NCBI GenBank assembly: GCA_965541585.1
Contig: CBEUCH010000004.1
Location: 32,001 to 96,000, forward strand
Length of the DNA stretch: 64,000 nucleotides
DNA from: an uncultured bacterium
GTDB lineage: Bacteria; Zixibacteria; MSB-5A5; UBA10806
Reading direction: 5' to 3'
Shown here piece after piece: positions 1 through 34,831 of the stretch. Positions within the stretch are counted from its first letter, which is position 1. Every line of letters begins with the position of its first letter. A program made the translations under genes and the position numbers. The notes beneath the pieces were generated by a model that was given only the letters and a program-made list of their open reading frames with translations, was not told where the DNA came from and ran no database searches.

Positions 1-293
1 ATAGTATTGGGAAAGACTTCCTTCCAGGTTTCTGCACCCAACTCAATCGGATCCTGTTTGATTTGCGCCTTTTCCTGATCTGGCATAAAATACCCGTTTC
101 TTCGAAATGCCTCGCCAAAGGCATTGCGTTTAGGGATAGCCACGTGACATGTAGTACAGGTCGTCTTGTACTTTCTGGCAAACGCCGGGATAGCCGCCGC
201 ATCCCTGCAAAACATTATGATTACCAGCACAGCAAAGAGCACAATCGCGCACCGGCCAAAAAGTGCAGTATGATTCATAGTATTGTTTTGCAT
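1..293 (-). CDS. Cyc2-like cytochrome c-porin fusion, 5' part (runs off the window edge)
   Basis: Not in the ORF track. Manual translation from ATG at 293: MQNNTMNHTALFGRCAIVLFAVLVIIMFCRDAAAIPAFARKYKTTCTTCHVAIPKRNAFGEAFRRNGY... It has a signal peptide, AxPxFARKY and CxxCH, and is a paralog of 7499..8782. Confidence 0.8.
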   Translation of the reverse strand, partial: MQNNTMNHTALFGRCAIVLFAVLVIIMFCRDAAAIPAFARKYKTTCTTCHVAIPKRNAFGEAFRRNGYFMPDQEKAQIKQDPIELGAETWKEVFPNT

Positions 294-629
294 GAGAACC
301 GCTTTAAGCCGTCGCCCGGTTAATCCCGCGAGCGACCCGGCGAATCGCAAAAATCAAATTGCCTCGTAAAGACTACTATGCCGCAGAGCGATACCATTAC
401 TGCCGGTGGGTTAGCTACATCATTCCACACACTATCCAACCCTTAGAATGGCTCCAATCTCATCCGGGCAAACCATACACCCGGGCAATCAAAACGGTAT
501 TAACCCGGCGTCTATTTGTCAAGTTCTATCGGGCGTTGATCCTACGCTCGCTCCGGTTTTTTGGCTACTCTCACGGTTGCCGTTCTTCAACTTCTGTCCG
601 GGTATCAGATGCCCGTGACCGCAGAGGAT

Positions 630-1055
630 TCATTCGCTACCGATCCTGGAAAGGTACATGACGTAGTAGCTGGCATTTTTGATATCCGTGTCCGAAAGTG
701 TCTTTCCCCATGCAGGCATTAGATGAGAAAATCCGACCGCTGCGCCGCCCGAGGATATTGTTTCTTCTATCAGGGCGCTATCCAGTCGTGCCTGATAACT
801 TGAGTCCGCAAAATTCCTCGGCCTGGGATCAAGATTGTAAGCATTAAATCCATCTCCTCTGCCTTCGGCCCCGTGGCAAATCGAACAGTATTTTCCGTAG
901 ACCTTTCTGCCATTAGCAAGATCGCTATCCACAATCTCCTCAAAACTATTTGCGGTTTCCAGCACAAGATCCCGCTGCGGTGTTTCCTGTTTCGAGCATG
1001 AAAAGAGAAAAACCAGTATGGCCATGGCTGTTAATGTGTTGCTGACAATTCTCAT
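630..1055 (-). CDS. Monoheme cytochrome c, probable lipoprotein
   Basis: Lipobox-like LFSC, a single CSICH and a distal Met in LMPAWG. Confidence 0.85.
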   Translation of the reverse strand: MRIVSNTLTAMAILVFLFSCSKQETPQRDLVLETANSFEEIVDSDLANGRKVYGKYCSICHGAEGRGDGFNAYNLDPRPRNFADSSYQARLDSALIEETISSGGAAVGFSHLMPAWGKTLSDTDIKNASYYVMYLSRIGSE

Positions 1056-3043
1056 TTTTTCCCCTTCTTCATAGCCATCAGAGCTGCGGTGATTTGCCTT
1101 GATTCGATATCGGAGAAGCCAAAATCAGGCTGAATAGTGGCCGGCCTGTATTTTTGAGGGTCTATCATCCAGCTATACACCCAGCCTGCTTCCAACCGGT
1201 TCCCGCAGTCATCAAGCGTCGGACCAAGGTAACCGCCGTTACCATCAATAATGTGGCAGTTCACACATTGCAGAGAATCAACAATGCGCCTGCCTGTCTC
1301 GACATCAGTCGGTTCAAACTCGTATTCAAAAAACCTGGGGATATCGTCACTTATATACACTTTTTTGATGTACTCGGCCATGAGAGATGCTTCTCTTTCA
1401 GTCATCCTGAAATGAGGCATTCGTTCCGGAAGTATCGGCCGGACGGCATATGGGCGGATGAGATAATCCCTCAACCATTCGAATTTGACTATACTTCCTT
1501 CAATTGTCAGGGGCACCGTGGAGATTGTACCCCCGTACCTGTCAATTGAGTGACAACTAATGCAACTATATTTCTCGAATAATTCGCCAAACTCGCCGGC
1601 CGGTTTCTTATAAAGAGACTTTTCAGATTCTTCAACAAGATGTTTGGCAGAATAATTTTTTCCCTTGTTGCCGAGCATAGCGATAGTTATTTCAAATGCC
1701 TCTTTCTCCGTAAAGTAGAAATTAGGCATAATGCTCGTAGAATCGAAAACGTCAGGCTGTTTCAATTTCATAAAAATCCAGTTGTAAAGGGTCGGAACAA
1801 TATCATCATAGCCTCCGAAATTCAAGCTCGATTCCAGGCGATCGCCGATATTGGACAGCTTGGGTCCTATTTTGATGGATTTGTTTTCCCCGGCAATGTT
1901 ATGGCATCCGCCGCAGCCGTATTTTTTGAATAGTCTCTCCCCATGCCGAATCTGCTCCTGTATTCTCGAAGAGGATATTGGTATATCGATTTTAACGGTA
2001 TCCCCGGGGAAAATATATTCATCCTCGGAAAATTCCTCGATTAAATAAGCCGCAATATCAAGAGCGTTCTGATTGCTGAAATAATATTCCAGCATCTTCT
2101 TTTCGGGTTGGTAGTAATGCACGTTTCGCACGAAGTTCGGAAGCCAGATCTCCCTGGCCTTGTCGCCGATTCTTTCGAGTTCCGGGGCAAAGTTTCCACC
2201 CCGGCCATGTATATTGTGACAGGTTATACATCTTGATTCGCTTACGAGGATCTTACCGGAATCCTCATCTCCCACTCCGGATGGCAGCCGGTCAATATAA
2301 ATCGGAGGTGAATTCTTCCCATCGAGACTCATTAGAAATTCGACGAGATCATAAATATCCTCATCATTGAACCGGAACGACGGCATACGAGAATTACTCA
2401 GATAATCTTTCGGATTTTTCAACCAGTGGAAAAGCCAGCCCCTGGTAACCTTGTTACCAATACCGTCCAGATCAGGTCCATTGGTTTCCTCCTCAAAAAA
2501 GCGGTTAATGTCATGACAGCCGGTACAGCCTCTGTCCTTGATGAGGAGTCTCCCATCCGTAAGAATATTCGCTTCAGGTACCTCCTCGGATTGATGGCAA
2601 GTACCACAGGAAGCCTGGATCAACTCGCGCGGAAGCATTGTCTCGTTCCAGAAGTCAAGCTTGTCATGCGCCGCTTTCTCATACGATACTGCATATCCCT
2701 GCCCGAAATGGCAGGAAGTACAGCCGAAATCTTTGCTTTTATGGATACTTAACAGATTTCCCGGATGGGTATTGAATGGTGAGGGAGCTTTTCTATATTT
2801 ATTGCTCTCGATGCCGAGATGGCAGGTTGGACAACGGTCCACTATACCTAAGCCTTCCACTACAATCTGCTTTATCCCGGGCTTGACCGAGGAGCCGTCT
2901 TTTGTCATAGAGTAAAACCTGTTTTCATCAATTTCTGAAAAATCGATCTGGACCCGCTTCCATTCCTGATTGAAATCATCAACAAGGATTAGAATAAAGC
3001 TGATGAAAAGGAAAACTCCCGATATGTAAATCCAGCGTTTCAT
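1052..3043 (-). CDS. Membrane-anchored octaheme cytochrome c
   Basis: N-terminal TM helix and 8 CxxCH motifs (CPTCH, CTSCH, CGTCH, CTGCH, CITCH, CGGCH, CISCH, CVNCH). Confidence 0.9.
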   Translation of the reverse strand: MKRWIYISGVFLFISFILILVDDFNQEWKRVQIDFSEIDENRFYSMTKDGSSVKPGIKQIVVEGLGIVDRCPTCHLGIESNKYRKAPSPFNTHPGNLLSIHKSKDFGCTSCHFGQGYAVSYEKAAHDKLDFWNETMLPRELIQASCGTCHQSEEVPEANILTDGRLLIKDRGCTGCHDINRFFEEETNGPDLDGIGNKVTRGWLFHWLKNPKDYLSNSRMPSFRFNDEDIYDLVEFLMSLDGKNSPPIYIDRLPSGVGDEDSGKILVSESRCITCHNIHGRGGNFAPELERIGDKAREIWLPNFVRNVHYYQPEKKMLEYYFSNQNALDIAAYLIEEFSEDEYIFPGDTVKIDIPISSSRIQEQIRHGERLFKKYGCGGCHNIAGENKSIKIGPKLSNIGDRLESSLNFGGYDDIVPTLYNWIFMKLKQPDVFDSTSIMPNFYFTEKEAFEITIAMLGNKGKNYSAKHLVEESEKSLYKKPAGEFGELFEKYSCISCHSIDRYGGTISTVPLTIEGSIVKFEWLRDYLIRPYAVRPILPERMPHFRMTEREASLMAEYIKKVYISDDIPRFFEYEFEPTDVETGRRIVDSLQCVNCHIIDGNGGYLGPTLDDCGNRLEAGWVYSWMIDPQKYRPATIQPDFGFSDIESRQITAALMAMKKGKK

Positions 3044-3055
3044 TCCATCTCCGAT

Positions 3056-4306
3056 TTACCAGGGCCACACGAAGTGCCAGTTTTCTCCCCGGAAGAAAGT
3101 ACCGATAATAATTAGAATCACCATGGCAATCACGAATACGCCAAACAGGATATTTTGACGTTTTCTATATTTGGAGAACCAGATACCGGTGCCCTTTCCC
3201 TTGGAATCAATGTAAGGAAGAATTACCAGGCCGACCACAATCAGGAAAGGCAATAGTACCCCTCCCAGAAAAGCCGAGTAATGCACTAGCTCCTGCAGGC
3301 CGAGAAAATACCATGGCGCTTTCGCAGGATTCGGTGTAACTGTCGGATTTGCCTGTTCCTCGAGAGGGGCATTGAAGTAGACCGAGGCAATATTCAAAAG
3401 GGCTATAACGATTACGGTAGCAAGCAGTTCCTTGGGTATCAGATGGGTCCAGGTGAAAACAAAGTTCTCCGGATTTTTCTCGGCTGTAATTTCAGTTCCG
3501 TTGGCCACGCTCATCAGGCCATATGTTTTTGTTGGCGATTCGGTAACGCTTTGTTTTATGGTTGTGTCTGTATTTTCAGGTCCTGATATCCCGCCGTCTT
3601 TTCTAATCCTCCAGAAATGAATTGCCAGTGCGGCAATAGCTAATGAAGGAAGGACGAAGCAATGGAATACATAAAACCTGATAAGAGCACCCTGCCCGAC
3701 AATATTCCCGCCAAGCAGAAGAAACTTGATTTTCTCACCGATAACAGGCGCGTAGCTGGCCATGCTGGTGCCCACCGTAATCGCCCAGAAAGCCAGCTGA
3801 TCCCACGGTAACAGGTAACCGGTAAAGCTCAGTCCGATAGTAAAAAGAAAGAGGGATACCCCGACAACCCAGTTAAACTCTCGAGGTTTACGGAACGAGT
3901 AAGTAAAGAAAACTCGGCACATGTGCAAGAATACTGTTACAACCATTGCATGAGCGGCCCAGCGGTGCATATTCCTCAGGATTCGGCCATAGGATACTAC
4001 CATCTCGATATCCTTGATACTCTGGTAGGCTTTTTCGGTTGATGGGATATAATAAAAGGCCAGGAGTATTCCAGTGACGACGAGCACCAGGAATAGCAAA
4101 AACGAGATCCCCCCCAATCCCATGGTGTACCAGAACCTGACGCTGTCTTTGCGTACCTTGACCGGGTGAAGATGAAACGCAACATTGCTGGTGATAGCCA
4201 GCGACCGGTTCAGGTCGTTATCGACTTTTCCATGACGGAAAAATGATTTCCAGACCCTGCTTTTTACAAGCCAATCTCTGGTCTTTTGATATAACTGCGC
4301 CATCAA
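3056..4306 (-). CDS. petB: Cytochrome b of a Rieske/cyt b complex (b6 and subunit IV regions fused)
   Basis: [27 protein letters not shown]-x14-HFW and [12 protein letters not shown] motifs. Confidence 0.92.
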
Positions 4307-4797
4307 GCCATCAGCCTGAAGTTTTTGTCCACTTCTTTCCGGGTGTTTACCTGAAGCTTATCGTCGCTGGTTAAGGTCAATTCATACCACTTTAATGGCT
4401 TTGGAGCGGGCCCGCTGATAGTCTTACCGTTTTTATCAAAAGTCGAACCATGACAGGGACAATCAAATCCTATCCTGTCATCGTTCCACATGACATTGCA
4501 TCCGAGGTGGCTGCATATCGATGAGACGGCGTAAAATCCCTCCTGCGTGCGGAAAATAAACAGACGGCTTTCATCAAGAAAAGTTACCGAGTCGGCAGGG
4601 AAATCCTCAATGCCGCCTACAGTGAATATTGTGGGGGGTTCGTATAAAACATTAGGAAGCATAAACCGCATCGTAGACACTACAATTCCCCCCAGGCCGG
4701 CAAAAAAGCTGAATTTACCGAGGGTCTCCAGGAATTTCCGCCGTGAACTTCCCGTCTTGCTGTCCCGGTTGCCGTTTTCAGGCATTGGTGTATTCAT
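4303..4797 (-). CDS. petC: Rieske [2Fe-2S] protein
   Basis: Tat-like SRRKFL plus TM helix, CSHLGC and CPCHGSTF boxes, GPAP motif. Confidence 0.93.
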
Positions 4798-6586
4798 TAA
4801 ATAGGATTTTCTCCATCGTTATGGTTTGCGTAGGACATCTTTTGGCACACTGGCCGCATCTAATACATGACGTTTCATCTTTAATAATGGCAAAACGCTT
4901 ATCATCCAGAACACTTGATTCCCCGGCCTGTTTGCCGGTTACCTTCAACTTTGCCGGATCCACTATTCGCAGGCAGTCAAACGGACAGACATCGACACAA
5001 CCCCCGCAGAGAATACACTTATCGCTGTCGAATATGGTATTGATATTACACTTCAGGCAGCGAGAAGCCTCCATTCGAGCTTCTTCATCTGAGTACACCA
5101 TCTCCACCTCGCTGAAGCCGGTACGGCGGTCGACCTCGATCTGGGGAATCTCAACTCTCTTTGAAGATTCAAAGCCTTCGGGCATGGTATATTTCGAGGT
5201 GTCCATCATCCGGAAATAATAGGCTTGATTGGGGAGGCTTTTAGGATCAATATAATTCATAATCGATCTGGCGGCCCGTTTGCCGTTGGCGACAGAGTCG
5301 ATAACGATCCTGGGGCCGAATACTGCATCTCCACCGGCGAAGACACCCGGGATATTGGTTTCCAGCGTATCAGGATCTGCTTTTATATTACCGTTGGGAT
5401 TTAAGTAAAGGTTTTCGTCGAGAGTAAAAGAACCCGGGTCAACCTGTTGGCCGATAGCCATGATAACTGTGCCGCCATCGATAACTGACTCAGTGTTTTC
5501 CAGAAAAGTCGGATTGAATCTACCCTCACTGTCGAAAACAGACAGGACATCAAGCACCTTCAAACCGATGGCACTTCCGGCGCGGCCGAGGATTTCTCTG
5601 GGACCTCTGGAAGTGTGAAAAACAACGCCCTCAGCCTTCGCCTCGTCGATCTCATAGCGATGGGCCGGCATTTCCTCCCATGATTCCAGGCAGACAACGT
5701 GCACTTCCTTGGCTCCCAGGCGCAAGGCGGCGCGGGCGGCATCGATAGTGGCGCTGCCATCGTCAGTCTCAGAATCGCTTTCATCTCTTATCGCGGAACG
5801 GGCGATATCAATGGCCACGTTTCCACCACCGATCACGATCACGCGGTCGGCAAGGTCAACTTTGTAACCGAGGTTAACGTTGATCAAAAAATCGATACCA
5901 TTGATGACACCATCAAGATCGCTGCCGGGAATCGCGACACCTTTGCTCTTGGAGGCTCCAATACCCATAAATATCGCTCTGTAGCCCTGGTCTTTTAATG
6001 TCTGGAGTGAAAAATCCCGGCCCAATGCCCACCCGGTTTTTATTTGCACGCCGAGATGCAGTACCCGCTCGAACTCCATCCTGATCAAGTATCGTGGCAG
6101 GCGGTATTCCGGAATACCGAGATAGAGCATGCCACCGACTACACGAGTTGATTCGAAAATGGTTACCTCATAACCGTTAAGGGCAAGATAATATGCGCAT
6201 GAAATACCCGAGGGTCCGGCGCCTATTACAGCAACCTTGATACCGTTTGACGGTGGCCGTTTTCTTGGCAGATACTTTTTCCCCGATTCCGGACCGAATT
6301 TTTCGCAGGCAATACGTTTTAAGGCTCGGATAGAGATGGGGTTGTCGATATCACCGCGCCTGCAAACTGACTCACATGGATGAGCACAGACCCGGGCGCA
6401 GATAGAGGCCAGGGGATTGGGAGCGGCTGCAACCTCATACGCCTCATTGAGGTTACCGTCCGCAATCGCCTGTACGTAGCGGCCGGCATGAGTGTTTACC
6501 GGACAGCCTTTCCGGCAGGGAATCAGATCCAGGTAATATTCGAGATCTGGAATAACGACATTATATGTGTCTTTTTGTTGGGGCAT
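4778..6586 (-). CDS. NAD(P)-dependent FAD/Fe-S oxidoreductase (GltD/NfnB/DsrL-like) with C-terminal 2x[4Fe-4S] domain
   Basis: CxxxCP, CxxxCxxxCxxxC, GAGPSG and GGGNVAID dinucleotide motifs, and two CxxCxxCxxxCP. Start placed at MPQQ (the ORF track starts at 6625, overlapping the upstream gene). Confidence 0.9.
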   Translation of the reverse strand: MPQQKDTYNVVIPDLEYYLDLIPCRKGCPVNTHAGRYVQAIADGNLNEAYEVAAAPNPLASICARVCAHPCESVCRRGDIDNPISIRALKRIACEKFGPESGKKYLPRKRPPSNGIKVAVIGAGPSGISCAYYLALNGYEVTIFESTRVVGGMLYLGIPEYRLPRYLIRMEFERVLHLGVQIKTGWALGRDFSLQTLKDQGYRAIFMGIGASKSKGVAIPGSDLDGVINGIDFLINVNLGYKVDLADRVIVIGGGNVAIDIARSAIRDESDSETDDGSATIDAARAALRLGAKEVHVVCLESWEEMPAHRYEIDEAKAEGVVFHTSRGPREILGRAGSAIGLKVLDVLSVFDSEGRFNPTFLENTESVIDGGTVIMAIGQQVDPGSFTLDENLYLNPNGNIKADPDTLETNIPGVFAGGDAVFGPRIVIDSVANGKRAARSIMNYIDPKSLPNQAYYFRMMDTSKYTMPEGFESSKRVEIPQIEVDRRTGFSEVEMVYSDEEARMEASRCLKCNINTIFDSDKCILCGGCVDVCPFDCLRIVDPAKLKVTGKQAGESSVLDDKRFAIIKDETSCIRCGQCAKRCPTQTITMEKILFNEYTNA

Positions 6587-6596
6587 CTTTGCCCTT

Positions 6597-7205
6597 TTAT
6601 CTATTGAGTTTGAATTCTCTCTCAATAGTACCCTTTTCGGAAACTTCCACGGCCTGCGATTCGGCTTTCAATTTCGGATGCCACACTTTCAGAGTGTAGC
6701 TTCCTTCGGGGACATTGTCAATTTGAAAACTTCCCGAGTCATCCGCCATGGAAAAGTAAGGACTTTCCATTATCACCACGAAGGCTTCCATTTCCGGGTG
6801 AACATTACAGAGCATGACCGCATCGCAAACCTTATCGCACCTTTTCTCAAAAGTAAATGACCTTATTTCGCCTGCCGGCCATGTACCCAGGTTAAACTTA
6901 TCAGCAGACTTATCAGGTGTAAACACATTATGTGCAACTTCGTCGCTATTTAGAAAGTCTACGGTGGTCCCTGCCAGGACCGGAAGTATGTGAGGGATGA
7001 ATACCAGGTTTTTCTGATCCATAACTTCGTGTTTTGCGGGTGCTTTGAATTCGCCCTGTATGCCCTCGATATAGATCAGGGTATGCGGCAGATATTTGCT
7101 TTTTTTAGCTGTTATCTTGCCCTTAATTGTACCTGCCTGAATAGGAATCCATGTCAGAAAACTGGCAATCAGCATGGCGACCGTTAACAGCCTGATATTT
7201 CTCAT
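6597..7205 (-). CDS. Exported cupredoxin-like protein with carboxypeptidase-regulatory-like beta-sandwich
   Basis: Signal peptide, HNVF...CNVHPEM (type-1 copper-like His/Cys/His/Met set), and a C-terminal G.F.I.NVP.G.Y.L.VWH pattern. Confidence 0.7.
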   Translation of the reverse strand: MRNIRLLTVAMLIASFLTWIPIQAGTIKGKITAKKSKYLPHTLIYIEGIQGEFKAPAKHEVMDQKNLVFIPHILPVLAGTTVDFLNSDEVAHNVFTPDKSADKFNLGTWPAGEIRSFTFEKRCDKVCDAVMLCNVHPEMEAFVVIMESPYFSMADDSGSFQIDNVPEGSYTLKVWHPKLKAESQAVEVSEKGTIEREFKLNR

Positions 7206-7316
7206 ATCATCTCCTCATCCGTTTCCACATTTAGAATTAATCCAAGGCATAATCCGGGGGAGTTTCCGCACCGGTAACATCGGCTTGCCTGCCGAATATC
7301 CAGAATCTTTAACCCT

Positions 7317-7499
7317 CTACGGGCTGGTTTTGTTCTCCCCCGGGTAGCGCATTCCTTTTTTGTTAAATGCCTTGCCAAAGCCGTTAAGGCGAGGATAGGC
7401 TTAGTGGCAGGTGCTGCAACTGGTCTTGTACTTTCTGGCGAAAGTCGGGATAGCATTTACGGTCCCCGCCAGTAAAGCCGCCAGGAACAAGCAGGCCAT
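7317..7499 (-). pseudogene. Degenerate duplicate of the 5' end of the adjacent Cyc2-like gene
   Basis: Reads MACLFLAALLAGTVNAIPTFARKYKTSCSTCH*AYPRLNGFGKAFNKKGMRYPGENKTSP*. The DNA closely matches about 8590-8755, with TAT(Tyr) changed to TAA at 7401-7403. Confidence 0.85.
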
Positions 7500-8782
7500 T
7501 AAATTGAGAAATTAAACTGAATCGTTAGTCTATCATCGTCCTCGCGAGCCTCGTCAAGGGGCTTCCGGTATTCCAGAGAACATTTTACATTTGCCCGGAT
7601 CATAACGATCACAGCCGGCACCAACGTAGTCTGCGGATCGGGATCATCAAGATCGGTGTCTCTGTCGACAAACTCATAACGCGCCTGCCCTATTAACCAC
7701 GGGAAGACTACATAATTGAGCTCGCCGAACCAGGCCAGCGACGTTCTTTCCACAGCGTCATAGTCGGATTTCATTTGCATGAAAAGACCTACGACATTGA
7801 ATTTATCATACCAGAAATCGATATCTCCGCCAAAAACGGTGAAATCATCTTCCAGCGTATCTTTAACGGCGCTGCCTGAGTAAGCGAATCCTCCTAAACG
7901 TACAGAATTGTCTATGTAAAAGGCTGACTCCGAACTCTCCTGCCCTTCGGTTCCGCCTATTTCGCCGAGGCCGCCTATCTTATAGGTGCCCCTGGCGTAA
8001 AAATCTTTTGATGTATTCAGATCGAAATTATCCTCATCATTCTGGCCGTTACCTATACCGACGGCATAAGTGAAGCCGCCCTGACCACCAGATCCGTTAC
8101 CGGCGCCCCATAACTCCAGGCCACCGCCGGCGCCACTCCGCATCCTCCAGGTTCCGGATTGATTTCTGAGATCCTCAATTGCGTAATGTTCTCTGGTTAA
8201 TCTGTGATGTTCGGGACTGACAGTAAGCCCCACCGAACCGGCTTTAAGATGAATCCTTGGGCTGAAATCATATTGCAGGGCGAATTCGTAGGCCAACTCA
8301 GTCTCATGTTCTAATTCAACCTCTCCGAAATAGGAGATTTTGTCTCCAATAGTACCTGCAAACAAAAGTTCGAATTCGTGGGGTATTTCAAATGTCATTC
8401 CCTTATCCTCTTCAACCTCGCCTGTGGTTGTAGGATCATCCCATTTTCCCCCGTAATGGATACGTCCGAACGCGTGAACTGATAAGGGAGAAGTGCCGGC
8501 GATATCTGCGGGCCAAATGGCGTCCGGCCAGACCTTCTTATAGCTTTCAGAGCCAAGGCTTACGGGTTCTTCTTTCGTAAAGTTCTCGTCGCCCCCTGGA
8601 TACCTGAATCCGTTGTTCGCGAACGCCTTCCCAAATCCGTTTAGTTTCGGATAGGCATAGTGGCAGGTGCTGCAACTGGTCTTGTACTTTCTGGCAAATG
8701 TCGGGATTGCCTTTGTAGTCCCCGCCAGTAAAGCCGCCAGGAACAAGCAAGCCAGAACTGCTCCACAGTAGACTTTTTTCAT
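7499..8782 (-). CDS. cyc2: Cyc2-like outer-membrane cytochrome c-porin fusion
   Basis: Signal peptide, then AIPTFARKY-x3-CSTCH-x3-PKL (the Cyc2 family signature and spacing), followed by amphipathic beta-strands and a C-terminal aromatic motif. Confidence 0.75.
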   Translation of the reverse strand: MKKVYCGAVLACLFLAALLAGTTKAIPTFARKYKTSCSTCHYAYPKLNGFGKAFANNGFRYPGGDENFTKEEPVSLGSESYKKVWPDAIWPADIAGTSPLSVHAFGRIHYGGKWDDPTTTGEVEEDKGMTFEIPHEFELLFAGTIGDKISYFGEVELEHETELAYEFALQYDFSPRIHLKAGSVGLTVSPEHHRLTREHYAIEDLRNQSGTWRMRSGAGGGLELWGAGNGSGGQGGFTYAVGIGNGQNDEDNFDLNTSKDFYARGTYKIGGLGEIGGTEGQESSESAFYIDNSVRLGGFAYSGSAVKDTLEDDFTVFGGDIDFWYDKFNVVGLFMQMKSDYDAVERTSLAWFGELNYVVFPWLIGQARYEFVDRDTDLDDPDPQTTLVPAVIVMIRANVKCSLEYRKPLDEAREDDDRLTIQFNFSI

Positions 8783-8827
8783 TGTACCTCCTTAAACGTT
8801 TAATGCTAAAACACTTCCGATTGGTTA

Positions 8828-8843
8828 AGCAACAAACATGCCA
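8828..8843 (-). promoter_or_regulatory. Sigma54 (-24/-12) promoter of operon 1
   Basis: Minus strand TGGCATGTTTGTTGCT has exact GG-N10-GC spacing. It lies 45 nt upstream of the cyc2-like start, and a sigma54 activator gene is adjacent. Confidence 0.85.
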
Positions 8844-8913
8844 TTTACAGCGCCTGATAACTGCTTGGATAATCGGCAGTTATGGGACGGGGAAAATACC
8901 CGGCTTGTTGAAT

Positions 8914-8930
8914 TGTAACATATCATTACA
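8914..8930. promoter_or_regulatory. Palindromic enhancer site 1 (TGTAA-N7-TTACA)
   Basis: TGTAAcatatcaTTACA, about 70-90 nt upstream of the sigma54 site. Confidence 0.7.
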
Positions 8931-8996
8931 TTCACAATGGTGGTAGTCGTTTTAAGGCATTAGGATTCAAAAGGATAGAAATTATTTCAAGTAATT

Positions 8997-9013
8997 TGTA
9001 ATGAATCGTTACA
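8997..9013. promoter_or_regulatory. Palindromic enhancer site 2 (TGTAA-N7-TTACA)
   Basis: TGTAAtgaatcgTTACA, with arms and spacing identical to site 1. Confidence 0.7.
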
Positions 9014-9014
9014 G

Positions 9015-10379
9015 TTACAGATCTTTGATATCGTATTGGTCGATCTTCTTATAAAGCCGCGGGCGAGAAATTCCTAATATCTCTGCCGCCTTAGATTTAT
9101 TGCCGTTGGATTCTTTGAGAGCCTTGATTATCAGATCTTTTTCAGCTTCTGAGAATGAGGGCACCGATGTCGCTTGTTTTCCACCATGATCAGGTGCGCT
9201 GGTTATGTTTGCAGGCAGGTCTTTGGAAGTGATAATCTCCGCAGCTCTCTCCGCAAACAGACGCTCGACCAGGTTTTCCAATTCTCTGATATTACCGGGC
9301 CAGCGGTATTTTGCAAGCATGTTCAGGGCATTGTCATCAAAAGCCTTAATTTTGAAATCATGGGTCTGGTTGCCTTTATCCAGGAAGTACTGCAATAAAC
9401 CGACTATTTCATCGCTTATTTTCCTCAATGGAGGGACATCGATAGGAATAACGTTCAATCTATGATAGAGATCCTCTCTCAGCAACTTCCGGGAAAGCGC
9501 ATTTTGCAGATCAGTATTAGTGGCCGCAATAAACCGAACGTCAATCTTTAATTCTTCGACAGAGCCGACGGGCCTTATGGATCTTTCCTGGATTGAGCGC
9601 AGAAGCTTGGCCTGCGTACCGGGTTGCATCTCCACCAGCTCATCCAGAAACAGTGTTCCGCCGTCGGCGGACATCATTAAGCCCTCATGATCCTGGCCGG
9701 CGCCGGTGAATGCGCCTTTCCTGTAGCCGAACAATTCACTTTCTATCAATTCGCGGGACAGGGCGCTGCAGTTTATGGCAACAAACGGCCCTGAAGTCCT
9801 ACGGCTGTTTTTATGTATAGCCGTGGCGAAGAGTTCTTTGCCGGTGCCGCTTTCCCCGGAGATAAATACAGAACAATCACATCGGGCCGCCGATGTGATT
9901 CTGTCATAAACCTTCATCATAAGGGCATTGCTGAATACATACCCATCCAACTGAAGATCATGAGTTACTATTTTTTTTAACTGTTGAACCTCATTCTGGA
10001 GTTTCCAGATCTTATAGACCTGTTGAATTGAATTGAGCAATTCACTTTTATTGAAAGGTTTGGTGATATAATCGGTGGCGTTATCCTTGATTGCCTTTAC
10101 GGCCGATTCAATTGAGCCGTAGCCGGTCATTATGATGACCTCGATCGCAGGGTTAATCGCTTTGACCTCCTGCAATAATTGCGTACCGTCCTTGCCGGGC
10201 ATTTTCAGGTCGGCAACAACCAGGTTAATGTCATTTTTGGAGCTTATTGTTTCAAGGGCTTCGTCTGCAGATCCCAGAGCCTTAACGTGATAACCCCGGC
10301 CGGCAATTACCCTGGCACAGGTTTCGGCATAATCGATATCATCATCGACCACCAGTATTTTGAAATCACTTTCACTCAT
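9015..10379 (-). CDS. Sigma54-dependent response regulator (NtrC family)
   Basis: REC domain (VVDDD, DLKMPG), GESGTGKE, GAFTGA and a C-terminal Fis-type HTH. Confidence 0.95.
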   Translation of the reverse strand: MSESDFKILVVDDDIDYAETCARVIAGRGYHVKALGSADEALETISSKNDINLVVADLKMPGKDGTQLLQEVKAINPAIEVIIMTGYGSIESAVKAIKDNATDYITKPFNKSELLNSIQQVYKIWKLQNEVQQLKKIVTHDLQLDGYVFSNALMMKVYDRITSAARCDCSVFISGESGTGKELFATAIHKNSRRTSGPFVAINCSALSRELIESELFGYRKGAFTGAGQDHEGLMMSADGGTLFLDELVEMQPGTQAKLLRSIQERSIRPVGSVEELKIDVRFIAATNTDLQNALSRKLLREDLYHRLNVIPIDVPPLRKISDEIVGLLQYFLDKGNQTHDFKIKAFDDNALNMLAKYRWPGNIRELENLVERLFAERAAEIITSKDLPANITSAPDHGGKQATSVPSFSEAEKDLIIKALKESNGNKSKAAEILGISRPRLYKKIDQYDIKDL

Positions 10380-11527
10380 CAGGCCACCGGAAAGTATAGC
10401 TTAAATGATGCCCCTTCTCCCATATTGCTTTCTACTTCGATCCTGCCATCATGTTCAAGGATAATTTTCTTGCATAGAGCCAGCCCCAAGCCGGTACCTT
10501 CCGGCCCCGCCTTTGTAGTAAAAAATGGATCAAAAACTTTATCAATATGATCAGCCGGAATTCCCGGACCATTATCCGTAAATGTGACGGCAACCTGGTT
10601 CAACAAAAGATCTTTGCCAATTTGAATATCTATTTTACCATTTTTACCTATTACATGGATTGAATTCGAAAAAAGATTGAAGAACAGTTGCTCAATCTGA
10701 TTTTCATTACAGAAAATCTCCGTATCCTTTGTTTTTATATCAATGTTCAATGCAACGTTGTACTTTTTCAATTCGATTTCGACAAGACTTTTAACTTTAT
10801 TTATAATTGATTCGATATTTTGTTTTTTCCTGACAGGTTCCTCTTTCTTTACATAGGCGAGCAATTGCTTTACAACATTCGAGCAATGCTCTGCCTGGCG
10901 TTTGATCATGTCGACCTCTCCGGTCATAGACTGCGGGATATCTGTATCATTCAAAATATCGGCAGAAAGAATGATGGAGCCAAGCGGGGTGTTCAGCTCA
11001 TGGGCTATCCCGGCGGCGATCTGGCCGATATTTGTCAGCCTTTCGATTCGTCCCGGATCAGCCCTTAAATGGCTTTGCTCTCGTGTTTGTCTAAAAATAT
11101 TTATCAGGCCGATAACCTCGTTTCTGTTGGCAATAATCGGAATGACCGTTAACGCCATCTCGCGGCTATCCTCACCGGCAACAACTTTCGTTTCGAAATC
11201 AAAAACAGGCTTTTTCTCACGGGTGACATATTTTAATATGCTTTTATAGTCGTATCTGCATTGTTCAGCTATAGCATTTTCAAATGACGTTATCGGTTTT
11301 TTTGTACTGTTTGATTTAAACGATTTTTCAAACAAATCAGACGTTGATTCTATGGTCCCGGCGGGATCCGTTATCGCTGCCAATGCATCATAATGTTTAA
11401 GAATATGCTCCGTTTTCAGCTTTTCTTTTATATACTCCGATTGGCGACGGCGCGAATATTGCAGGAAAAGAAATATTGCAATAGACATGGCCAGAATCAG
11501 AAAGATGATTATTGGATAAACGTTCAT
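10379..11527 (-). CDS. Sensor histidine kinase
   Basis: N-terminal TM, PAS-like region, AHELNTP H-box, and DNGPGI / FFTTK / GTGLGL. Confidence 0.93.
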   Translation of the reverse strand: MNVYPIIIFLILAMSIAIFLFLQYSRRRQSEYIKEKLKTEHILKHYDALAAITDPAGTIESTSDLFEKSFKSNSTKKPITSFENAIAEQCRYDYKSILKYVTREKKPVFDFETKVVAGEDSREMALTVIPIIANRNEVIGLINIFRQTREQSHLRADPGRIERLTNIGQIAAGIAHELNTPLGSIILSADILNDTDIPQSMTGEVDMIKRQAEHCSNVVKQLLAYVKKEEPVRKKQNIESIINKVKSLVEIELKKYNVALNIDIKTKDTEIFCNENQIEQLFFNLFSNSIHVIGKNGKIDIQIGKDLLLNQVAVTFTDNGPGIPADHIDKVFDPFFTTKAGPEGTGLGLALCKKIILEHDGRIEVESNMGEGASFKLYFPVA

Positions 11528-11773
11528 CCTGCCTATTTCTCCCTTAATCCGCTAGAAACTCAATAAAATCAAATGAAATAGTGTACCTCCGGCGCCGAGA
11601 TCATCACGTAATCAACGCTGCAGGCGGCCTGGATTGGCTCATAAAACCAATCGTGCCGGAGATACCTGCAACTGAAAGCAATCCACAGCATTTTGTAATG
11701 TTAATGATAAAGTCCCGGCATCACTTAAACAAATGTTTTTTAGGCTAATCCGGTCTGGCGAAAATGTCATCGA

Positions 11774-20030: not shown

Positions 20031-23000
20031 TTGAAAATAGAGATGAAAGACTCGACCGTTAAAAATGAAATAATCGATGCTTCTATCCCTGCCACAAGGA
20101 AGCTCCATCAGATTTCTCAATCGGTAAGCGATAAATTATATAAAAATCTATTCCATCACTCAAATGATGCAATCATAGTGCACGATTTATCCGGCAATAT
20201 ATTGGATGTGAATATGAAAGCGGTGGAGCTGTTTAATTGTACCAGTTCTAAATTCAAGACACTTAATATGCGTGATCTGCATCCTCCCACCGCCGTCGAG
20301 GCATCAAAGAAGGCGCTTGAGCTTATTTCTAAAAGCGGATCCGTCAATTTCGAAATAGATTTCAGAAAAAGTGACGGTGAAATTTTCCCTGCGGAGGTTT
20401 CGTCCAGCTTGATCGACGCGGACGGGTTAAGAATTATCCATGGCATTATCCGGGATGTGACTGAAAGAGGAACAGCAGAAAAAGAGCTGAGGGAAATCGA
20501 AAAGACGAACCTTGCGCTCTTGAATGCTCCAGCGGATCCGTCTCTTCTGTTAGACAGGGAAGGGATAATATTGGCCCTTAACAATGGAGCGGCAAGAGCT
20601 CTCGGCGGACCTGTAGGTGAATTGATTGGCAAGAATATATTAGGATATTTCCCCCCTGATCTGGCCAAATCCAGAAAGGATTATATTGACAGGGTGTTTC
20701 AAACTGGAAAGCCTGCTCGATTTGAGGATGAGATGTCTGGAGTTATTTATGATAATTCCATTTATCCTGTTTTCGATGAGAAAAGCAAGGTGGATAAGGT
20801 AGCCGTGTTTGCAGCCGATGTCACCGAACGCGTGCAAGTTGAGAAAGCGTTGCGGGATAGCGAAGAACGCTACAGGGCTATCTGGGAAAACTCCCCCATA
20901 GGGATATGCCTTACAGATCAAGAAGGTAAATATGGATACGTAAATCCCACTTATTGTGAGATTTATGGTTATTCCAAGGATCAACTGGTGGGCAAAAGAT
21001 TCTATGATATTCTAAGGCGACGGGGATTTAAAGGAGATCGTAAGAAAACCTATCAGAAACTATTCAAGAAGGGAGAACCCCTGCCGCTGGGCGAGATAGA
21101 GTTCTTGAGTTCTAAAGATGAACAGATATGGGTTCAGTATACGGGAGACTTCATCAGGGAAAACGGAGTGCCCAGGTATCTTGTTTCAATGAATATAGAT
21201 ATTACCGAGCGTAAGCGAGTGGAGATAGCGCTACGTGAAAACGAGCAAAAATATAAATCGATATTCGAATCGTTTCTCGATTTTTATTATCAGGCCGATA
21301 TGGACGGATTATTGATAAATGTGTCCCCATCGTGTCATGCTCTTTCCGGCTATACCCCTGACGAACTAATAGGCTGCCAGGTTCTGGATTTATGTCCCGA
21401 CCCTGCCCAGAGGAAAGCACTACTGGACACGTTGTTTAGAGAGGGATCAGTTACCGACTATGAGGTGACATTACGGGACAAAAGCGGCAAGGACATCCCC
21501 ATATCAACGAATGGCCGACTTATTCCGGATGATCAGGGCAAACCAATTAGAATAGAGGGGACTTTTCGGGATATTACGAGGAGAAAGCGAGACGAGGAAG
21601 CGCTTGCGGAAAGAGAAGAATTGCTCGGGGCAACTATTGAGTCGACAGCCGATGGCATTCTGGTTGTGAATGAGAAGGGTGAAACCACGCATTCAAATAC
21701 ACGGTTTGCGGAAATGTGGCGGATACCGCAAGAGCTTCTGGAAACAAACGATGATAATAAGCTATTAAGTTACGTGATGGATCAGTTGAAGGAGCCCCAG
21801 GCGTTTCTTACAAAAGTGCAAGAGCTTTACAAATCACCTGACACTGCCATGGACACTCTTTACTTCAAGGACGGACGGATTTTCGAAAGATATTCCTGTC
21901 CCTTGATCAAGAATCAAGGGATAGCAGGGCGGGTCTGGAGTTTCAGAGATATCACTGATTTAAAAAGGGCGGAACTGGTCCAGTCTACTTTGCATAAGAT
22001 ATCCGAGGCGACGAATCGCTCAAATGATATTATCGAGCTGCTGGGAACGATTCGAGAGATCCTCGGCGCATTGACCGATACCAGGAACTTCTATGTAGCC
22101 CTCTACGATGATGCTACGGAATCATATTCGTTTCCCTATAGTGTGGACGAGCACGATGGAACGGATTTCGCCCCCGAGCAGATGAAAAAGAGCCTTACCG
22201 ACTATGTCAGAAGAACAGGCAAACCCCTGCTCGCTGATGAGAAAACTCATAAGATCCTGATAAAAAAGGGCGAGGTGGAATCCGTGGGCGAATCATCGCC
22301 GATCTGGCTGGGTGTGCCGCTTGAAGCTCCGCGCGGAGTTATCGGCGTGATCGTTGTACAGGGCTATACGGATCCGACTATGTATGGCATTTCGGATTTA
22401 CATCTATTGTCTCTTGTTTCCGGCCATATTGCATTGGCTATAGAACGTAAAAGGGCAGAGATCGAACTTGACGTAGAAAAGGCTTATCTCGAGCAATTAT
22501 TCGAAAGCGCTCCCGAGGCAATCGTTGTCGTTGGGAACGACAGCCTGGTTGTCAGGTTTAATAGCGAGTTTACGCGAATGTTTGGCTACACGATAGGTGA
22601 ATCGCGAGGCAGATCAATAGATGATTTGATCGCCCCGGATCATTTAAACAGGGAAGCTTCTTCAATAACGCGGCAGGTATCGTCAGGTGAGACTTGCAGT
22701 CTCGAAACCCAAAGGCGACGCAAAAACGGATCATTTGTTGACGTGTCGATACTGGCAACGCCTATCAGGGTCCAGGGCGGGCAGGTGGCAATATATGCAA
22801 TCTACCGGGATATCACGGATCGCAAACAAGCGGAAAAACAATTGCGGCAATCGGAAGAAAAATACAGAACTCTGTTCGAGACTATTCATGACGGCATAAT
22901 TATAACTGATCTTAAGGAAGATATCATATTTGCCAATCCGGCGGCCTGCAATATTTTCGGATACCCCCGCGAAGAACTTATGGCCAAGAATCTTCGACAA

Positions 23001-27528: not shown

Positions 27529-28074
27529 TCAAGATTTCCTTTCTTTGAATCTTCTTTTTTTTAGTATCGCAACAATCACCGCGAAGGAAAGAATGAAAGC
27601 AATCGATCCCCCCAGATATGTCCATACAGGATTACCCATGCCGACTTTCAGATCGAAAAGAACGTTATTTTGCCTCAGCCCGTCGTTGAAGCTGACGCGC
27701 ACATAATAATGCCCGTCATCCTCGTAGACCCAGCCGACTTTATAAATATTGGTCGGGTTACGATAGGCGGTAAAGGGATGGCTCTCGGTGGGGTCCTCAT
27801 GCTTTCCAAATACCTTAAAGATTACGGCTCCATCGAAAACCTTGCTGGAGTCAATGTCGCGAATATATATGGCGAGGTCATATGCACCCTGGCCCGGTAT
27901 TTTGTAATATGTAAATGTGACGTCATAGTTATTGACGGTTTGAGTAACTTCATATACCGGAGTCTCCGGATAGTGATCCTGATAAGTATAATGCGGGATA
28001 CCGCGGATATGGTGGCCATAAGCGGTCGCCGCAAGAATGTGTAACACGGGCAATATCAAACGTATTTTGATCAT
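27529..28074 (-). CDS. Exported protein with C-terminal membrane anchor and His-rich N-terminus
   Basis: Signal peptide, mature start HHIRGIPHY, C-terminal TM plus basic tail. Start placed at MIKIRL. Confidence 0.7.
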   Translation of the reverse strand: MIKIRLILPVLHILAATAYGHHIRGIPHYTYQDHYPETPVYEVTQTVNNYDVTFTYYKIPGQGAYDLAIYIRDIDSSKVFDGAVIFKVFGKHEDPTESHPFTAYRNPTNIYKVGWVYEDDGHYYVRVSFNDGLRQNNVLFDLKVGMGNPVWTYLGGSIAFILSFAVIVAILKKRRFKERKS

Positions 28075-28081
28075 AACCGAT

Positions 28082-28993: not shown

Positions 28994-29597
28994 CTTCTTC
29001 GACTTTTCCCGGTATGACTTTTATTGCTTGCGGGTAATGGATACATACCTGCTCGCACAGCCCGCATCCCACGCACTTATCCGTTACTACCGGTTGCTCC
29101 CAGGTTTCGGAATAAATGGCAATACCGTCGTAGGGACAGGCAAATACGCATACGCCGCAGACGTAACCGTTGAAGGAATTGCAGATGTTCTTATCGACAA
29201 CTGCTTTCCCCATCCTGACACTTTTTAAAATTTCCTCGGAATCATCAGGTATGGCAACAAGAGCGCCGCTGGGACAGGTGTTGTTGCACTTCATGCAGAG
29301 AATACAGCCTTTTTCGCGAGGTTTAATGTATGGTGTGCCGGTCATGGCGGGGTCGAAGCTGTCATAATATTTTATTGTCTCGTTGGGACATACCTGCCCG
29401 CAGCGCCGGCAGCGAATGCATTTGGAGAGAAACGCCTTTTCCGCCAGAGCTCCCGGTGGCCTTAATGGAGGATATTTCTTTCCGGGGATAAGTTTCTTAA
29501 CGCTGTAGAAACCACCGGCGAAAAGGGGCAAGGCGGGAATGACAGCAGCGACAAATGTTTTTAAAAACTCCCTTTTTTTCATATCTTCCCAGCTCAC
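28977..29597 (-). CDS. napG: NapG/MauM-like polyferredoxin
   Basis: Tat-like KREFLK, LRPPGA, CIRCRRCGQVCP, GTPYI, four Fe-S motifs. Confidence 0.88.
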   Translation of the reverse strand: MSWEDMKKREFLKTFVAAVIPALPLFAGGFYSVKKLIPGKKYPPLRPPGALAEKAFLSKCIRCRRCGQVCPNETIKYYDSFDPAMTGTPYIKPREKGCILCMKCNNTCPSGALVAIPDDSEEILKSVRMGKAVVDKNICNSFNGYVCGVCVFACPYDGIAIYSETWEQPVVTDKCVGCGLCEQVCIHYPQAIKVIPGKVEEVGAKV

Positions 29598-29625
29598 ACA
29601 AATGCGGGAAAACAGGTTCTATTAT

Positions 29626-32286: not shown

Positions 32287-32293
32287 GGCAGAA

Positions 32294-34816: not shown

Positions 34817-34831
34817 TCCCGATTACTCCGC

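Follow-up and report, generated by a model that had tools for sequence, protein, structure and literature searches.

A gene cluster joining Cyc2-type porins, a cupredoxin and a putatively NAD(P)-linked Rieske/cytochrome b complex in an uncultured Zixibacteria bacterium

In an uncultured bacterium of the Zixibacteria, a single run of genes encodes Cyc2-type porins together with a cupredoxin and a putatively NAD(P)-linked Rieske/cytochrome b complex. The genes lie at one end of the window, which is the whole 64,000-nucleotide (nt) stretch that was analysed (contig 4, CBEUCH010000004.1, positions 32001-96000, of assembly GCA_965541585.1; the genome is 3.52 Mb and 98% complete). This combination is built from known kinds of components. 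The literature search turned up no paper that puts Cyc2 together with a cupredoxin and an NAD(P)-linked Rieske/b complex; supplementary figures that may be relevant here (Castelle et al., 2013, Fig. S9; the figshare Cyc2 trees) lay outside the search. The first-pass annotation of this DNA had also called the combination undescribed; the claim holds for the combination, but the pieces are known and Cyc2 homologues in these phyla have already been reported. We propose a redox chain in which Fe(II) would be taken up via Cyc2 and the Rieske/b-flavoprotein complex would provide coupling to menaquinone and NAD(P), and in our judgement the case for this proposal and the case against it are about evenly balanced. 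The earlier interpretation, a wire encoded at a single locus and running from the cell surface through the periplasm and the quinone pool to cytoplasmic NAD(H), is partly supported.

Eleven features, all on the minus strand, were recognised within window 1-11527 from open reading frames (ORFs), Pfam, NCBIfam and the number of CXXCH sites. They are given here in the direction of transcription, with a putative promoter.

10379..11527, minus strand: sensor histidine kinase, 382 aa (Pfam HisKA 4.4e-12, HATPase_c 2.6e-25)
9015..10379, minus strand: NtrC-type sigma-54-dependent response regulator, 454 aa (Response_reg 1e-25, Sigma54_activat 4.7e-64, HTH_8 1.1e-14)
8829..8843, minus strand: putative sigma-54-type -24/-12 promoter, TGGCATgtttgTTGC (sequence reading)
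7499..8782, minus strand: cyc2A, fused monohaem cytochrome c and predicted 16-strand porin, 427 aa (motif reading, structure model, Foldseek)
7326..7502, minus strand: dead partial copy of the cyc2A 5' end (translated and DNA alignment to cyc2A)
6597..7205, minus strand: predicted periplasmic type-1 cupredoxin with a CarboxypepD_reg-like beta-sandwich part, 202 aa (structure model, Foldseek, conserved ligands, Pfam)
4778..6625, minus strand: GltD/NfnB-like NAD(P)-binding Fe-S flavoprotein, predicted to be cytoplasmic, 615 aa (Fer4_20 1.2e-18, Pyr_redox_2 5.1e-25, Fer4)
4303..4797, minus strand: Rieske [2Fe-2S] subunit, 164 aa (Pfam Rieske 7.7e-14)
3056..4306, minus strand: cytochrome b, b6-like part fused to a subunit IV-like part, 416 aa (Cytochrome_B 3.2e-46, Cytochrom_B_C 6.3e-09)
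1052..3043, minus strand: octahaem cytochrome c, predicted to be membrane-anchored, 663 aa (eight CXXCH; Cytochrom_C, Cytochrome_CBB3 and Cytochrome_C7 matches)
630..1055, minus strand: monohaem cytochrome c lipoprotein, 141 aa (CXXCH at 57; Cytochrome_CBB3 2.3e-10; lipobox LFSC)
1..350, minus strand: cyc2B, 5' part only (motif AIPAFARKY-KTT-CTTCH)

The eight genes named by the first-pass annotation are all present, co-oriented and in the order claimed, as seen from ORF coordinates, domains and haem counts; the span that it gave also includes the histidine kinase and the sigma-54 activator, which it did not list. From the flavoprotein through the monohaem cytochrome c, successive genes overlap or are at most 12 nt apart (an overlap of 20 nt between the flavoprotein and Rieske genes in the window, 4 nt between Rieske and cytochrome b, and 4 nt between the octahaem and monohaem genes; a distance of 12 nt between cytochrome b and the octahaem gene). 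The activator start and the kinase stop overlap by 1 nt. Longer gaps separate the regulator from cyc2A (232 nt), cyc2A from the cupredoxin gene (293 nt) and the monohaem cytochrome gene from cyc2B (about 280-350 nt). The contig sequence (L003/L006) indicates that cyc2B runs on 1122 nt past the window start to give a complete frame of 490 aa, and that a second cupredoxin gene (217 aa) follows it after 112 nt, beyond which there is a convergent gene. Because cyc2B and the second cupredoxin gene extend past the window start, the cluster ends approximately 1.9 kb outside the window.

According to Keffer et al. (2021; PMC8406198), Cyc2 proteins have a signal peptide, one CXXCH and a PXL four residues after the CXXCH, are at least 365 residues long, and form a 16-strand porin like OprO/OprP. 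The same authors describe a motif just before the CXXCH, AXPXFAR[Q/K][T/Y], which they term 'unique to Cyc2'. Judged by its sequence, Cyc2A is a protein of this kind. Its N-terminus, MKKVYCGAVLACLFLAALLAGTTKA, reads as a signal peptide (by reading only) and precedes IPTFARKY; the haem region is TTKA/IPTFARKY-KTS-CSTCH-YAY-PKL, the sole CXXCH is at residue 37, and the length of 427 aa exceeds the published minimum. The motif occurs as AIPTFARKY in Cyc2A and as AIPAFARKY in Cyc2B and in Cyc2C, a third paralogue of the genome, each time three residues before the Cys; Keffer et al. (2021; PMC8406198) place it '5 amino acids upstream', so either the counting differs or the wording is loose. The PXL that follows the CXXCH is present in Cyc2A (PKL) and absent from Cyc2B and Cyc2C (PKR). 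A single CXXCH per protein was found in 80 of 80 sequences (77 relatives of at least 365 aa and the three paralogues of this genome), and PXFAR[QK][TY] is exact in 36 of the 77 relatives, the other 41 having W for F and/or S for A. The motif in both porins of the cluster agrees with the earlier statement that they are Cyc2-like.

Cyc2A is modelled as a 16-strand porin. The AlphaFold2 (AF2) model, built from 28 sequences, has 16 strands, with a predicted local distance difference test score (pLDDT) of 65.8 and a predicted template modelling score (pTM) of 0.69. The best Foldseek matches of this model are 16-strand general and phosphate porins, with OprP (2o4v) at rank 5 (E 9.6e-10). The first-pass annotation had named a predicted barrel with an N-terminal haem plug as a check, and the model shows the barrel; the haem domain is the part of low confidence. 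No Pfam or NCBIfam family matched Cyc2A, and in the ESM Atlas the protein falls among unnamed clusters and one cluster with Porin_O_P in 12% of its members.

A profile of the Cyc2 family was run against 1.84 billion proteins and, at E <= 0.001, retrieved 3735 representative clusters. Within the genome, Cyc2B is 30% identical to Cyc2A and 58-60% identical to Cyc2C; relatives in Chlorobiaceae are 32-34% identical to Cyc2A. No named iron oxidiser is among the matches listed for the Cyc2A family. A search from a Chlorobiaceae relative returned, among the matches listed, Chlorobiaceae-type proteins and the Cyc2A family, again with no named iron oxidiser. A bridge to Cyc2 cluster 1 by way of the Chlorobiaceae relatives was considered and dropped on this ground, and the midpoint-rooted FastTree tree therefore carries no cluster information.

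The gap downstream of cyc2A contains a relic that is probably the remnant of a tandem cyc2 copy. The start of the relic coincides with the stop codon of cyc2A. It is missing the first ~8 codons and is 78% identical in amino acids to Cyc2A residues 9-69 with one TAA, which has arisen from TAT after the CXXCH. Roughly 85-90% of the bases match over the first ~130 nt (alignment judged by eye), and the signal-peptide codons are identical. A contig of metagenome run X4 bridges the junction between the relic and cyc2A (7404-7684), and tandem Cyc2 genes are present in three related loci (L084, L101, L104). An 84-aa ORF at 7202-7456 was rejected as a gene because it belongs to no family and overlies the relic in a different frame. 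A joint in run X4 (7343->7490; depth 3.8, side 27) would be compatible with a relic-free strain and is too weak to use.

The 202-aa protein encoded next is confidently modelled as a type-1 cupredoxin fold with His-Cys-His-Met copper ligands. The AF2 model (39 sequences) has a pLDDT of 92.6 and a pTM of 0.84, and its Foldseek matches include the NirK cupredoxin domain, a Nitrosopumilus cupredoxin and amicyanins (template modelling score, TM, to target ~0.72; root-mean-square deviation 1.7-2.8 A), with matches to amicyanin, plastocyanin and pseudoazurin at TM to target of 0.6-0.8. The residues H92, C133, H136 and M139 are invariant in the 39 sequences and align with the ligands of the NirK cupredoxin domain; the C-x2-H-x2-M spacing of the loop is presumably the same as in amicyanin. 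The Pfam Copper-bind match (18.8 bits, under the cut-off of 21.2) is weak alone. A CarboxypepD_reg-like sandwich (Pfam) is joined to the cupredoxin.

The Rieske protein has the boxes CSHLGC...CPCHGS and a twin-arginine-like N-terminal anchor, SRRKFL (sequence reading). Its best match among solved structures is 9rk4 (1.1e-23), the Kuenenia protein Kuste4569, which outranks all b6f Rieske proteins. The cytochrome b, which comprises a four-helix b6-like part and a subunit IV-like part, has cytochromes b6 as its best solved matches; it is unsplit in the window and encoded by two genes in most related loci. On NCBIfam it scores 289.0 bits for ExtP (cut-off 290) and 81.7 bits for ExtQ (cut-off 150), and ExtS is matched at 81.2 bits (cut-off 100). 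All three scores are under the cut-off, so these proteins are related to the Ext families without being members. An N-terminal Cys holds haem cN in b6f cytochrome b, and no Cys of this kind was seen near the N-terminus of the window cytochrome b in a reading of its sequence. In the majority consensus of the cytochromes b (alignment A4), a Cys stands right after the His in RFYVLHC (FHC in the window), in the b6-like part.

The flavoprotein gene starts at a TTG (615 aa) or possibly at an ATG at 6586 (602 aa). The protein contains Fer4_20, Pyr_redox_2 and a C-terminal 2x[4Fe-4S] domain, with two N-terminal clusters as in GltD/NfnB, and it scores 456 bits against PRK12771, 'NAD(P)-binding protein' (cut-off 516). 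Its solved relatives are 9bov/9bp5 (8e-102), 8oh5, NfnB and GltD, and its C-terminus resembles FwdF (5t5i). The Cys clusters, including those of the C-terminal di-cluster domain, are conserved in 32 sequences, and neither a signal peptide nor a membrane helix was seen in the sequence. The octahaem cytochrome c has a hydrophobic N-terminus and CXXCH sites at residues 71, 108, 146, 173, 272, 377, 494 and 593, that is, four closely spaced haem sites followed by class-I cytochrome c domains. The cluster therefore has the components of the anammox type of complex, namely a cytochrome b of the b6 type that includes a subunit IV-like part, a Rieske protein, a multihaem cytochrome c in the place of cytochrome f/c1, and a GltD/NfnB-like NAD(P) oxidoreductase with an Fe-S chain inside the cluster. 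The likeness to anammox Rieske/cytochrome b complexes that the first-pass annotation had pointed out was confirmed by the nearness of the Rieske protein to Kuste4569 and by the solved homologues (9bp5, 5t5i) that the flavoprotein shares with Kuste4570 as described for Kuenenia.

The gene order is conserved elsewhere; this result, like the barrel fold and the motif of the porins, leaves the earlier interpretation unrefuted. In a collection of species, 466 stretches encode a relative of Cyc2A; the best 80 loci were kept, and each count below depends on the length of flanking sequence available. The cupredoxin gene is downstream of the Cyc2 gene in 63 of the 69 loci with at least 1 kb downstream, and it is the first match in 61. 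Where at least 8.5 kb is available downstream (43 loci), the cupredoxin, flavoprotein, Rieske, cytochrome b, multihaem c and monohaem c genes are all present in 28 loci. Three further loci end before the last of the six genes, four are without the flavoprotein only, three have the cupredoxin gene, a ~6-kb gap and then multihaem genes, and one (L107) carries five of the six genes, with no cupredoxin match. The last four, of which three have Eisenbacteria or Chlorobiaceae titles and one an Omnitrophota title, contain little or nothing of the set. The flavoprotein gene directly precedes the Rieske gene in 32 of the 43 loci. Because most related loci repeat the gene order, the arrangement is far beyond chance. 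The titles of the related loci include Ignavibacteria, Bacteroidales, Calditrichota, Fidelibacterota, Zixibacteria, Acidobacteria, Gemmatimonadales, Eisenbacteria, Latescibacterota and others, and some of the loci belong to MAGs titled as Ignavibacterium- and Melioribacteraceae-type. Because a number of these titles are bin labels that clearly cannot be relied on, phyla were not counted.

Within the phylum, 151 sampled genomes were searched with Cyc2A (E <= 1e-10). Matches were found in 17 genomes and are near full length in only six (this genome, G000, and G105, G090, G019, G033 and G082); the remaining matches consist of the haem motif only. In G105 and G090, the kinase, activator, Cyc2, cupredoxin, flavoprotein, Rieske, cytochrome b, multihaem c and monohaem c genes occur in the same order, and G019 and G033 have only Cyc2, cupredoxin, multihaem c and monohaem c. 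Within the same family, the cupredoxin and the operon occur only in G105; in a genome of the same genus (G129; 95% complete, 240 contigs), neither was found with the queries used. The proteins from the flavoprotein to the octahaem cytochrome c are 63-73% identical to those of G090, whereas Cyc2A is only 44-45% identical to its G090 counterpart and 67-68% identical to Fidelibacterota- and Ignavibacteria-type proteins. Because the identity pattern of Cyc2A departs from that of its operon partners, we consider that the porin gene has a history of its own.

One variant locus bears on the connection to quinone. In L044 (12022-17248), a c7-like cytochrome, a QrcB-like molybdopterin-type subunit, an Fe-S subunit and NrfD form a module like Qrc or alternative complex III (ACIII), which replaces the Rieske/b genes after the Cyc2-cupredoxin pair and is followed by two multihaem cytochromes. 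The blast pattern is the same in L038, L048 and L074; L044 is the only one of these loci that was annotated. Because a Qrc/ACIII-like module takes the place of Rieske/b in L044, the Cyc2-cupredoxin pair would be wired to a quinone site either way.

The operon appears to be under sigma-54/two-component control, as the activator, a -24/-12 element and rpoN (198.9 bits, in the genome) are all present. The putative promoter TGGCATgtttgTTGC (TGGCAT-N5-TTGC) is 47 nt before the cyc2A ATG. TGGCA[CT]-N5-TTG was found up to 600 nt upstream of 22 of 74 related Cyc2 genes, compared with 50 of 2220 control windows (2.3%), and it occurs in 21 of the 46 loci with an upstream activator and in one of the 28 without. 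The enrichment exists only in this form with a relaxed -12 element (TTG): the strict form, TGG[CT]A[CTG]-N5-[TC]TGC, was found within 250 nt upstream of only two of 76 genes and is not conserved, and TGG-N9-TGC was found at six of 76 genes versus 6% of control windows. The kinase has one N-terminal membrane helix, a cytoplasmic AtoS-like region (an NCBIfam alignment at residues 35-381, under the cut-off), HisKA and HATPase_c. With a single membrane helix and without a periplasmic domain, the kinase probably senses a cytoplasmic or membrane signal. Among the 65 related loci with enough upstream flank, a kinase homologue is upstream of the Cyc2 gene in 37 and an activator homologue in 43. Scans for terminators and sigma-70 promoters gave sites no commoner than in shuffled sequence, and none in the minus-strand intergenic gaps.

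Paralogues of the operon proteins were located by tblastn over the whole genome and then by Pfam. A second module, at window 25972-39118 on the minus strand, also includes two family-less proteins; its other genes are as follows.

38690-39118, minus strand: Rrf2 regulator
36855-38693, minus strand: second GltD-like flavoprotein, 43% identical to the first
36393-36854, minus strand: Rieske protein
34832-36430, minus strand: cytochrome b
32294-34816, minus strand: decahaem cytochrome c, first four haem sites positioned as in the octahaem cytochrome c
29626-32286, minus strand: NapA/Fdh-like molybdoenzyme, predicted to be exported by twin-arginine translocation (TAT)
28977-29597, minus strand: NapG-like protein
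28082-28993, minus strand: NapH-like protein

By its gene content, this module seems to combine a periplasmic molybdoenzyme with a Rieske/b complex of the NAD(P)-linked kind. A third Cyc2 operon is on contig 25 (11849-20200; L111 3850-12252) behind a GntR-family gene, and it consists of cyc2C, cupredoxin C, Rieske, cytochrome b6, subunit IV-like, octahaem c (855 aa) and monohaem c genes; no flavoprotein gene was found in it. A fourth cupredoxin of the same family is on contig 18 (about 38900-46800; L112 5895-13767) behind an Rrf2 regulator and adjoins an enzyme of the type II DMSO-reductase family (alpha subunit of 1148 aa, EB_dh haem b, Fer4_11; Nxr/Ebd-like). A phage-type integrase gene is located just upstream of this locus. 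Contig 2 carries a plain Rieske/b pair.

The flavoprotein gene directly precedes the Rieske gene in two paralogous modules of the genome. These paralogous modules indicate that the flavoprotein travels with Rieske/cytochrome b, not with Cyc2, and that the cupredoxin is the general periplasmic carrier of the organism. Because a flavoprotein-free Cyc2 operon and a flavoprotein module joined to a Nap-like enzyme are present in one genome, the parts are modular. The genome also encodes one haem-copper oxidase and MenA; no futalosine enzyme was found in it.

Each part of the cluster has a known counterpart. According to the account of Keffer et al. (2021; PMC8406198), the Acidithiobacillus ferrooxidans Cyc2, Leptospirillum Cyt572 and Mariprofundus Cyc2PV-1 are like the porins described here in having a signal peptide, an N-terminal CXXCH, the motif, a length of about 430 aa and a 16-strand OprP-like barrel; of the three paralogues, only Cyc2A keeps the PXL. 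In known systems, Cyc2 is described as followed by cyc1 and an oxidase, whereas here it is followed by a cupredoxin and the Rieske/b-flavoprotein complex. In A. ferrooxidans, the components are encoded in the rus (cyc2-cyc1-cup-cox-rus) and petI (cycA1-sdrA1-petA1B1C1) operons as presented by Quatrini et al. (2009; PMC2754497), and the earlier remark that these are kept apart agrees with that report. The likeness extends to Cyc2, the blue copper carrier, the c-type cytochromes, the Rieske/b quinone link and the NAD(P)-binding gene sdrA1 inside the uphill bc operon petI. However, two operons there correspond to one here, and the A. ferrooxidans complex belongs to the bc1 type and has cytochrome c1, whereas that of the window belongs to the b6 type and has an octahaem c. 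SdrA1 belongs to the short-chain dehydrogenases and is no Fe-S flavoprotein, and the window operon has no oxidase genes. Unlike A. ferrooxidans, the organism of the window presumably lives at neutral pH.

The nearest counterparts of the Rieske/b part are the Kuenenia stuttgartiensis complexes Kuste4569-4574 and Kustd1480-1485 discussed by Hauser et al. (2025; PMC12954380), which have a b6-type cytochrome b and a subunit IV-like part, a Rieske protein, a hexa- or octahaem cytochrome c replacing cytochrome f, and a cytoplasmic NAD(P) oxidoreductase with an Fe-S chain that is related to NfnABC (9bp5) and FwdF (5t5i). The differences are a different phylum, the lack of an anammoxosome, and the fusion of b6 with subunit IV here; in addition, no partner like hydroxylamine oxidoreductase occurs here, and the cupredoxin, monohaem c and Cyc2 porins would be the periplasmic partners. 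Even for anammox bacteria, quinol-driven NAD(P)+ reduction by bifurcation is still presented as a proposal (PMC12954380). The extHIJKLMNOPQS cluster of Geobacter sulfurreducens (Jahan et al., 2018; PMC5877670) is also similar, with a phosphate-porin-like outer-membrane protein, multihaem cytochromes, the Rieske protein ExtO, the b6-like ExtP/ExtQ and the lipoprotein cytochrome c ExtS. In that description, however, ExtI is not given a haem, a rhodanese and a selenoprotein cytochrome are present, and neither a cupredoxin nor a flavoprotein appears. From the same candidate phylum, the RBG-1 metal-respiration cluster (Castelle et al., 2013; PMC3903129) combines a porin with mono- and multihaem cytochromes and with a Rieske/b complex (PetAB), and its authors favour Fe(II) oxidation as more likely. 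It differs in having MtrA/MtrB homologues (a decahaem cytochrome in a large porin), not a Cyc2-type fusion, and the text surveyed mentions no cupredoxin or NAD(P) flavoprotein. He (2019) reports homologues of Cyc2 from Ignavibacteriaceae, Bacteroidetes and Pelodictyon, and FeGenie iron-oxidation calls are on record for Ignavibacteriales and Zixibacteria.

These comparisons touch two unsettled questions, namely the supply of NAD(P)H in neutral-pH iron oxidisers and the role of Cyc2 homologues outside the classical iron oxidisers. A 2026 review gives the neutral-pH uphill route only as bc1 or ACIII with reverse complex I, and the function of the NAD(P)-linked Rieske/b complex is so far a proposal, studied, according to the account in PMC12954380, only in anammox bacteria. 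The operon, a conserved and regulated set of genes that turns up under the labels of many phyla, joins the Cyc2 question to that of the NAD(P)-linked Rieske/b complex. The genome is itself a natural comparison set, with a Cyc2 operon that includes the flavoprotein, a Cyc2 operon without it and a flavoprotein module that has another periplasmic partner.

The conserved gene order suggests that the proteins of the operon work together, that Cyc2 and the cupredoxin form a functional pair, and that the Rieske/cytochrome b complex has the flavoprotein as its cytoplasmic subunit. We infer a chain from Cyc2 through the cupredoxin/monohaem c, the octahaem c and Rieske/cytochrome b to quinone, and by analogy with the anammox proposal the flavoprotein would link the b haems to NAD(P). 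In the proposed mechanism, the Cyc2 haem would oxidise dissolved Fe(II), and the electrons would then reach the high-potential cupredoxin and the c-type cytochromes. Most electrons would pass onward to a terminal reductase encoded elsewhere, for which the haem-copper oxidase, the Nap-like enzyme and the Nxr-like enzyme are candidates. The Rieske/cytochrome b-flavoprotein complex would couple the high-potential pool to the menaquinone pool and NAD(P); on quinol oxidation, in the anammox manner, one electron would go to Rieske/cytochrome c/cupredoxin and the other to the b haems, the Fe-S clusters, FAD and NAD(P)+. The flavoprotein-free operon of contig 25 is a candidate for running electrons in reverse, from Fe(II) to quinone, at the expense of the proton motive force. 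Hauser et al. (2025; PMC12954380) give potentials of about -70 mV for menaquinone and -320 mV for NAD(P). Therefore, the acceptor of the second electron would need to be above about +180 mV. Cupredoxins and other blue copper proteins usually have potentials above +180 mV. The reported value for Cyc2PV-1, +208 mV (Keffer et al., 2021; PMC8406198), is close to the one required.

We lean towards Fe(II) uptake because the tested Cyc2 proteins oxidise Fe(II), blue copper proteins are known in iron oxidation and petI carries an NAD(P)-binding gene. The biochemically tested Cyc2 proteins cited in the literature surveyed are all Fe(II) oxidases (Keffer et al., 2021, PMC8406198, among others), and the iron systems described with blue copper proteins (rusticyanin, sulfocyanin) are oxidising. 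Several observations weigh against this reading. In addition to the low confidence of the modelled haem domain, Fe(II) would reduce the very cytochrome c/cupredoxin pool that is needed as the oxidant for bifurcation, so the presence of cyc2 and the flavoprotein complex in one operon fits an outward flow at least equally. The enzyme joined to the paralogous flavoprotein module is Nap-like and probably works as a reductase; taxa known to reduce Fe(III) have Cyc2 homologues (He, 2019); and RuBisCO was not found in the 98% complete genome, which consequently gives no sign of a Calvin cycle, other carbon-fixation routes not having been searched. All of these points but the one on the haem domain agree with a chain of reverse polarity, in which Rieske/b would oxidise menaquinol and electrons would leave via Cyc2 to a soluble acceptor, such as chelated Fe(III) or Mn(III). 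The high-potential electron would travel via the octahaem c, the monohaem c and the cupredoxin, and the low-potential electron via the b haems to the flavoprotein, yielding NAD(P)H or cycling at a quinone site. Every gene of the operon would then serve one reaction, and in the second module the TAT-exported NapA-like enzyme with its NapG/NapH-like partners is a likely high-potential reductase, a layout that parallels anammox, for which nitrite reduction has been proposed to be the driving sink (Hauser et al., 2025; PMC12954380). Ignavibacteriaceae are among the Fe(III)-reducing taxa with Cyc2 homologues (He, 2019), and FeGenie, as described, permits iron reduction for Cyc2 of cluster 3. However, the literature surveyed contains no Cyc2 for which in vivo reduction of an outside acceptor has been shown. 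Little Fe(III) dissolves at neutral pH, and a single-haem plug inside a narrow pore would meet dissolved species only. Furthermore, we know of no Fe(III)-reducing conduit with a blue copper protein. We consider the reverse polarity a real but doubtful possibility.

Under the proposal of Fe(II) uptake, the substrate is iron, and the same wiring could in principle serve another solute, such as Mn(II), Cu(I), iodide, a quinone/humic shuttle or sulfur species. [quoted passage not shown] The three diverged paralogues of the genome (30-60% identity) could also have different substrates. However, the cytochrome motif termed 'unique to Cyc2' is intact in all three paralogues, the tested members cited all oxidise Fe(II), and there is no positive evidence for other substrates, so that we regard a non-iron solute as unlikely. 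We give still less weight to the reading that the flavoprotein is a soluble Fe-S enzyme dependent on NAD(P)H, with the operon as its only tie to a Rieske/b complex running an ordinary Q cycle, which seems quite improbable. The flavoprotein has no membrane helix, its relatives include the soluble enzymes Nfn and GltD, and four of the 43 well-flanked loci as well as the contig 25 operon do without it. However, its place directly before Rieske in 32 of those loci and in both flavoprotein modules of the genome argues for a subunit, as does the extra C-terminal di-cluster domain, conserved in 32 sequences, which would lengthen the Fe-S chain. In addition, the homologous anammox proteins are treated and modelled as complex subunits by Hauser et al. 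(2025; PMC12954380).

A broader idea, which we offer tentatively and rather doubt, is that the flavoprotein-Rieske-cytochrome b-multihaem unit is a portable NAD(P)H generator that is independent of complex I, bifurcates menaquinol electrons and can be plugged into varied high-potential periplasmic partners. If so, its partners in this genome would be Cyc2/cupredoxin for one copy and the Nap-like enzyme for the other. Such a unit would be a third link between iron and NAD(P)H for neutral-pH bacteria of many uncultured phyla, besides reverse bc1/ACIII and reverse complex I, and the anammox proposal would become one instance of a principle at work widely.

In the stretch that separates the two respiratory modules, the plus strand of the window encodes a 1448-aa hybrid sensor kinase (20031-24377) with many PAS domains, one GAF domain and one receiver domain. 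Contigs of metagenome runs X1-X4, which are from marine or marine-sediment samples of three studies, are 90-99% alike to the window and cover 28-30 of the 30 operon bins of window 1-11600. Therefore, close relatives with the operon occur in marine and marine-sediment samples.

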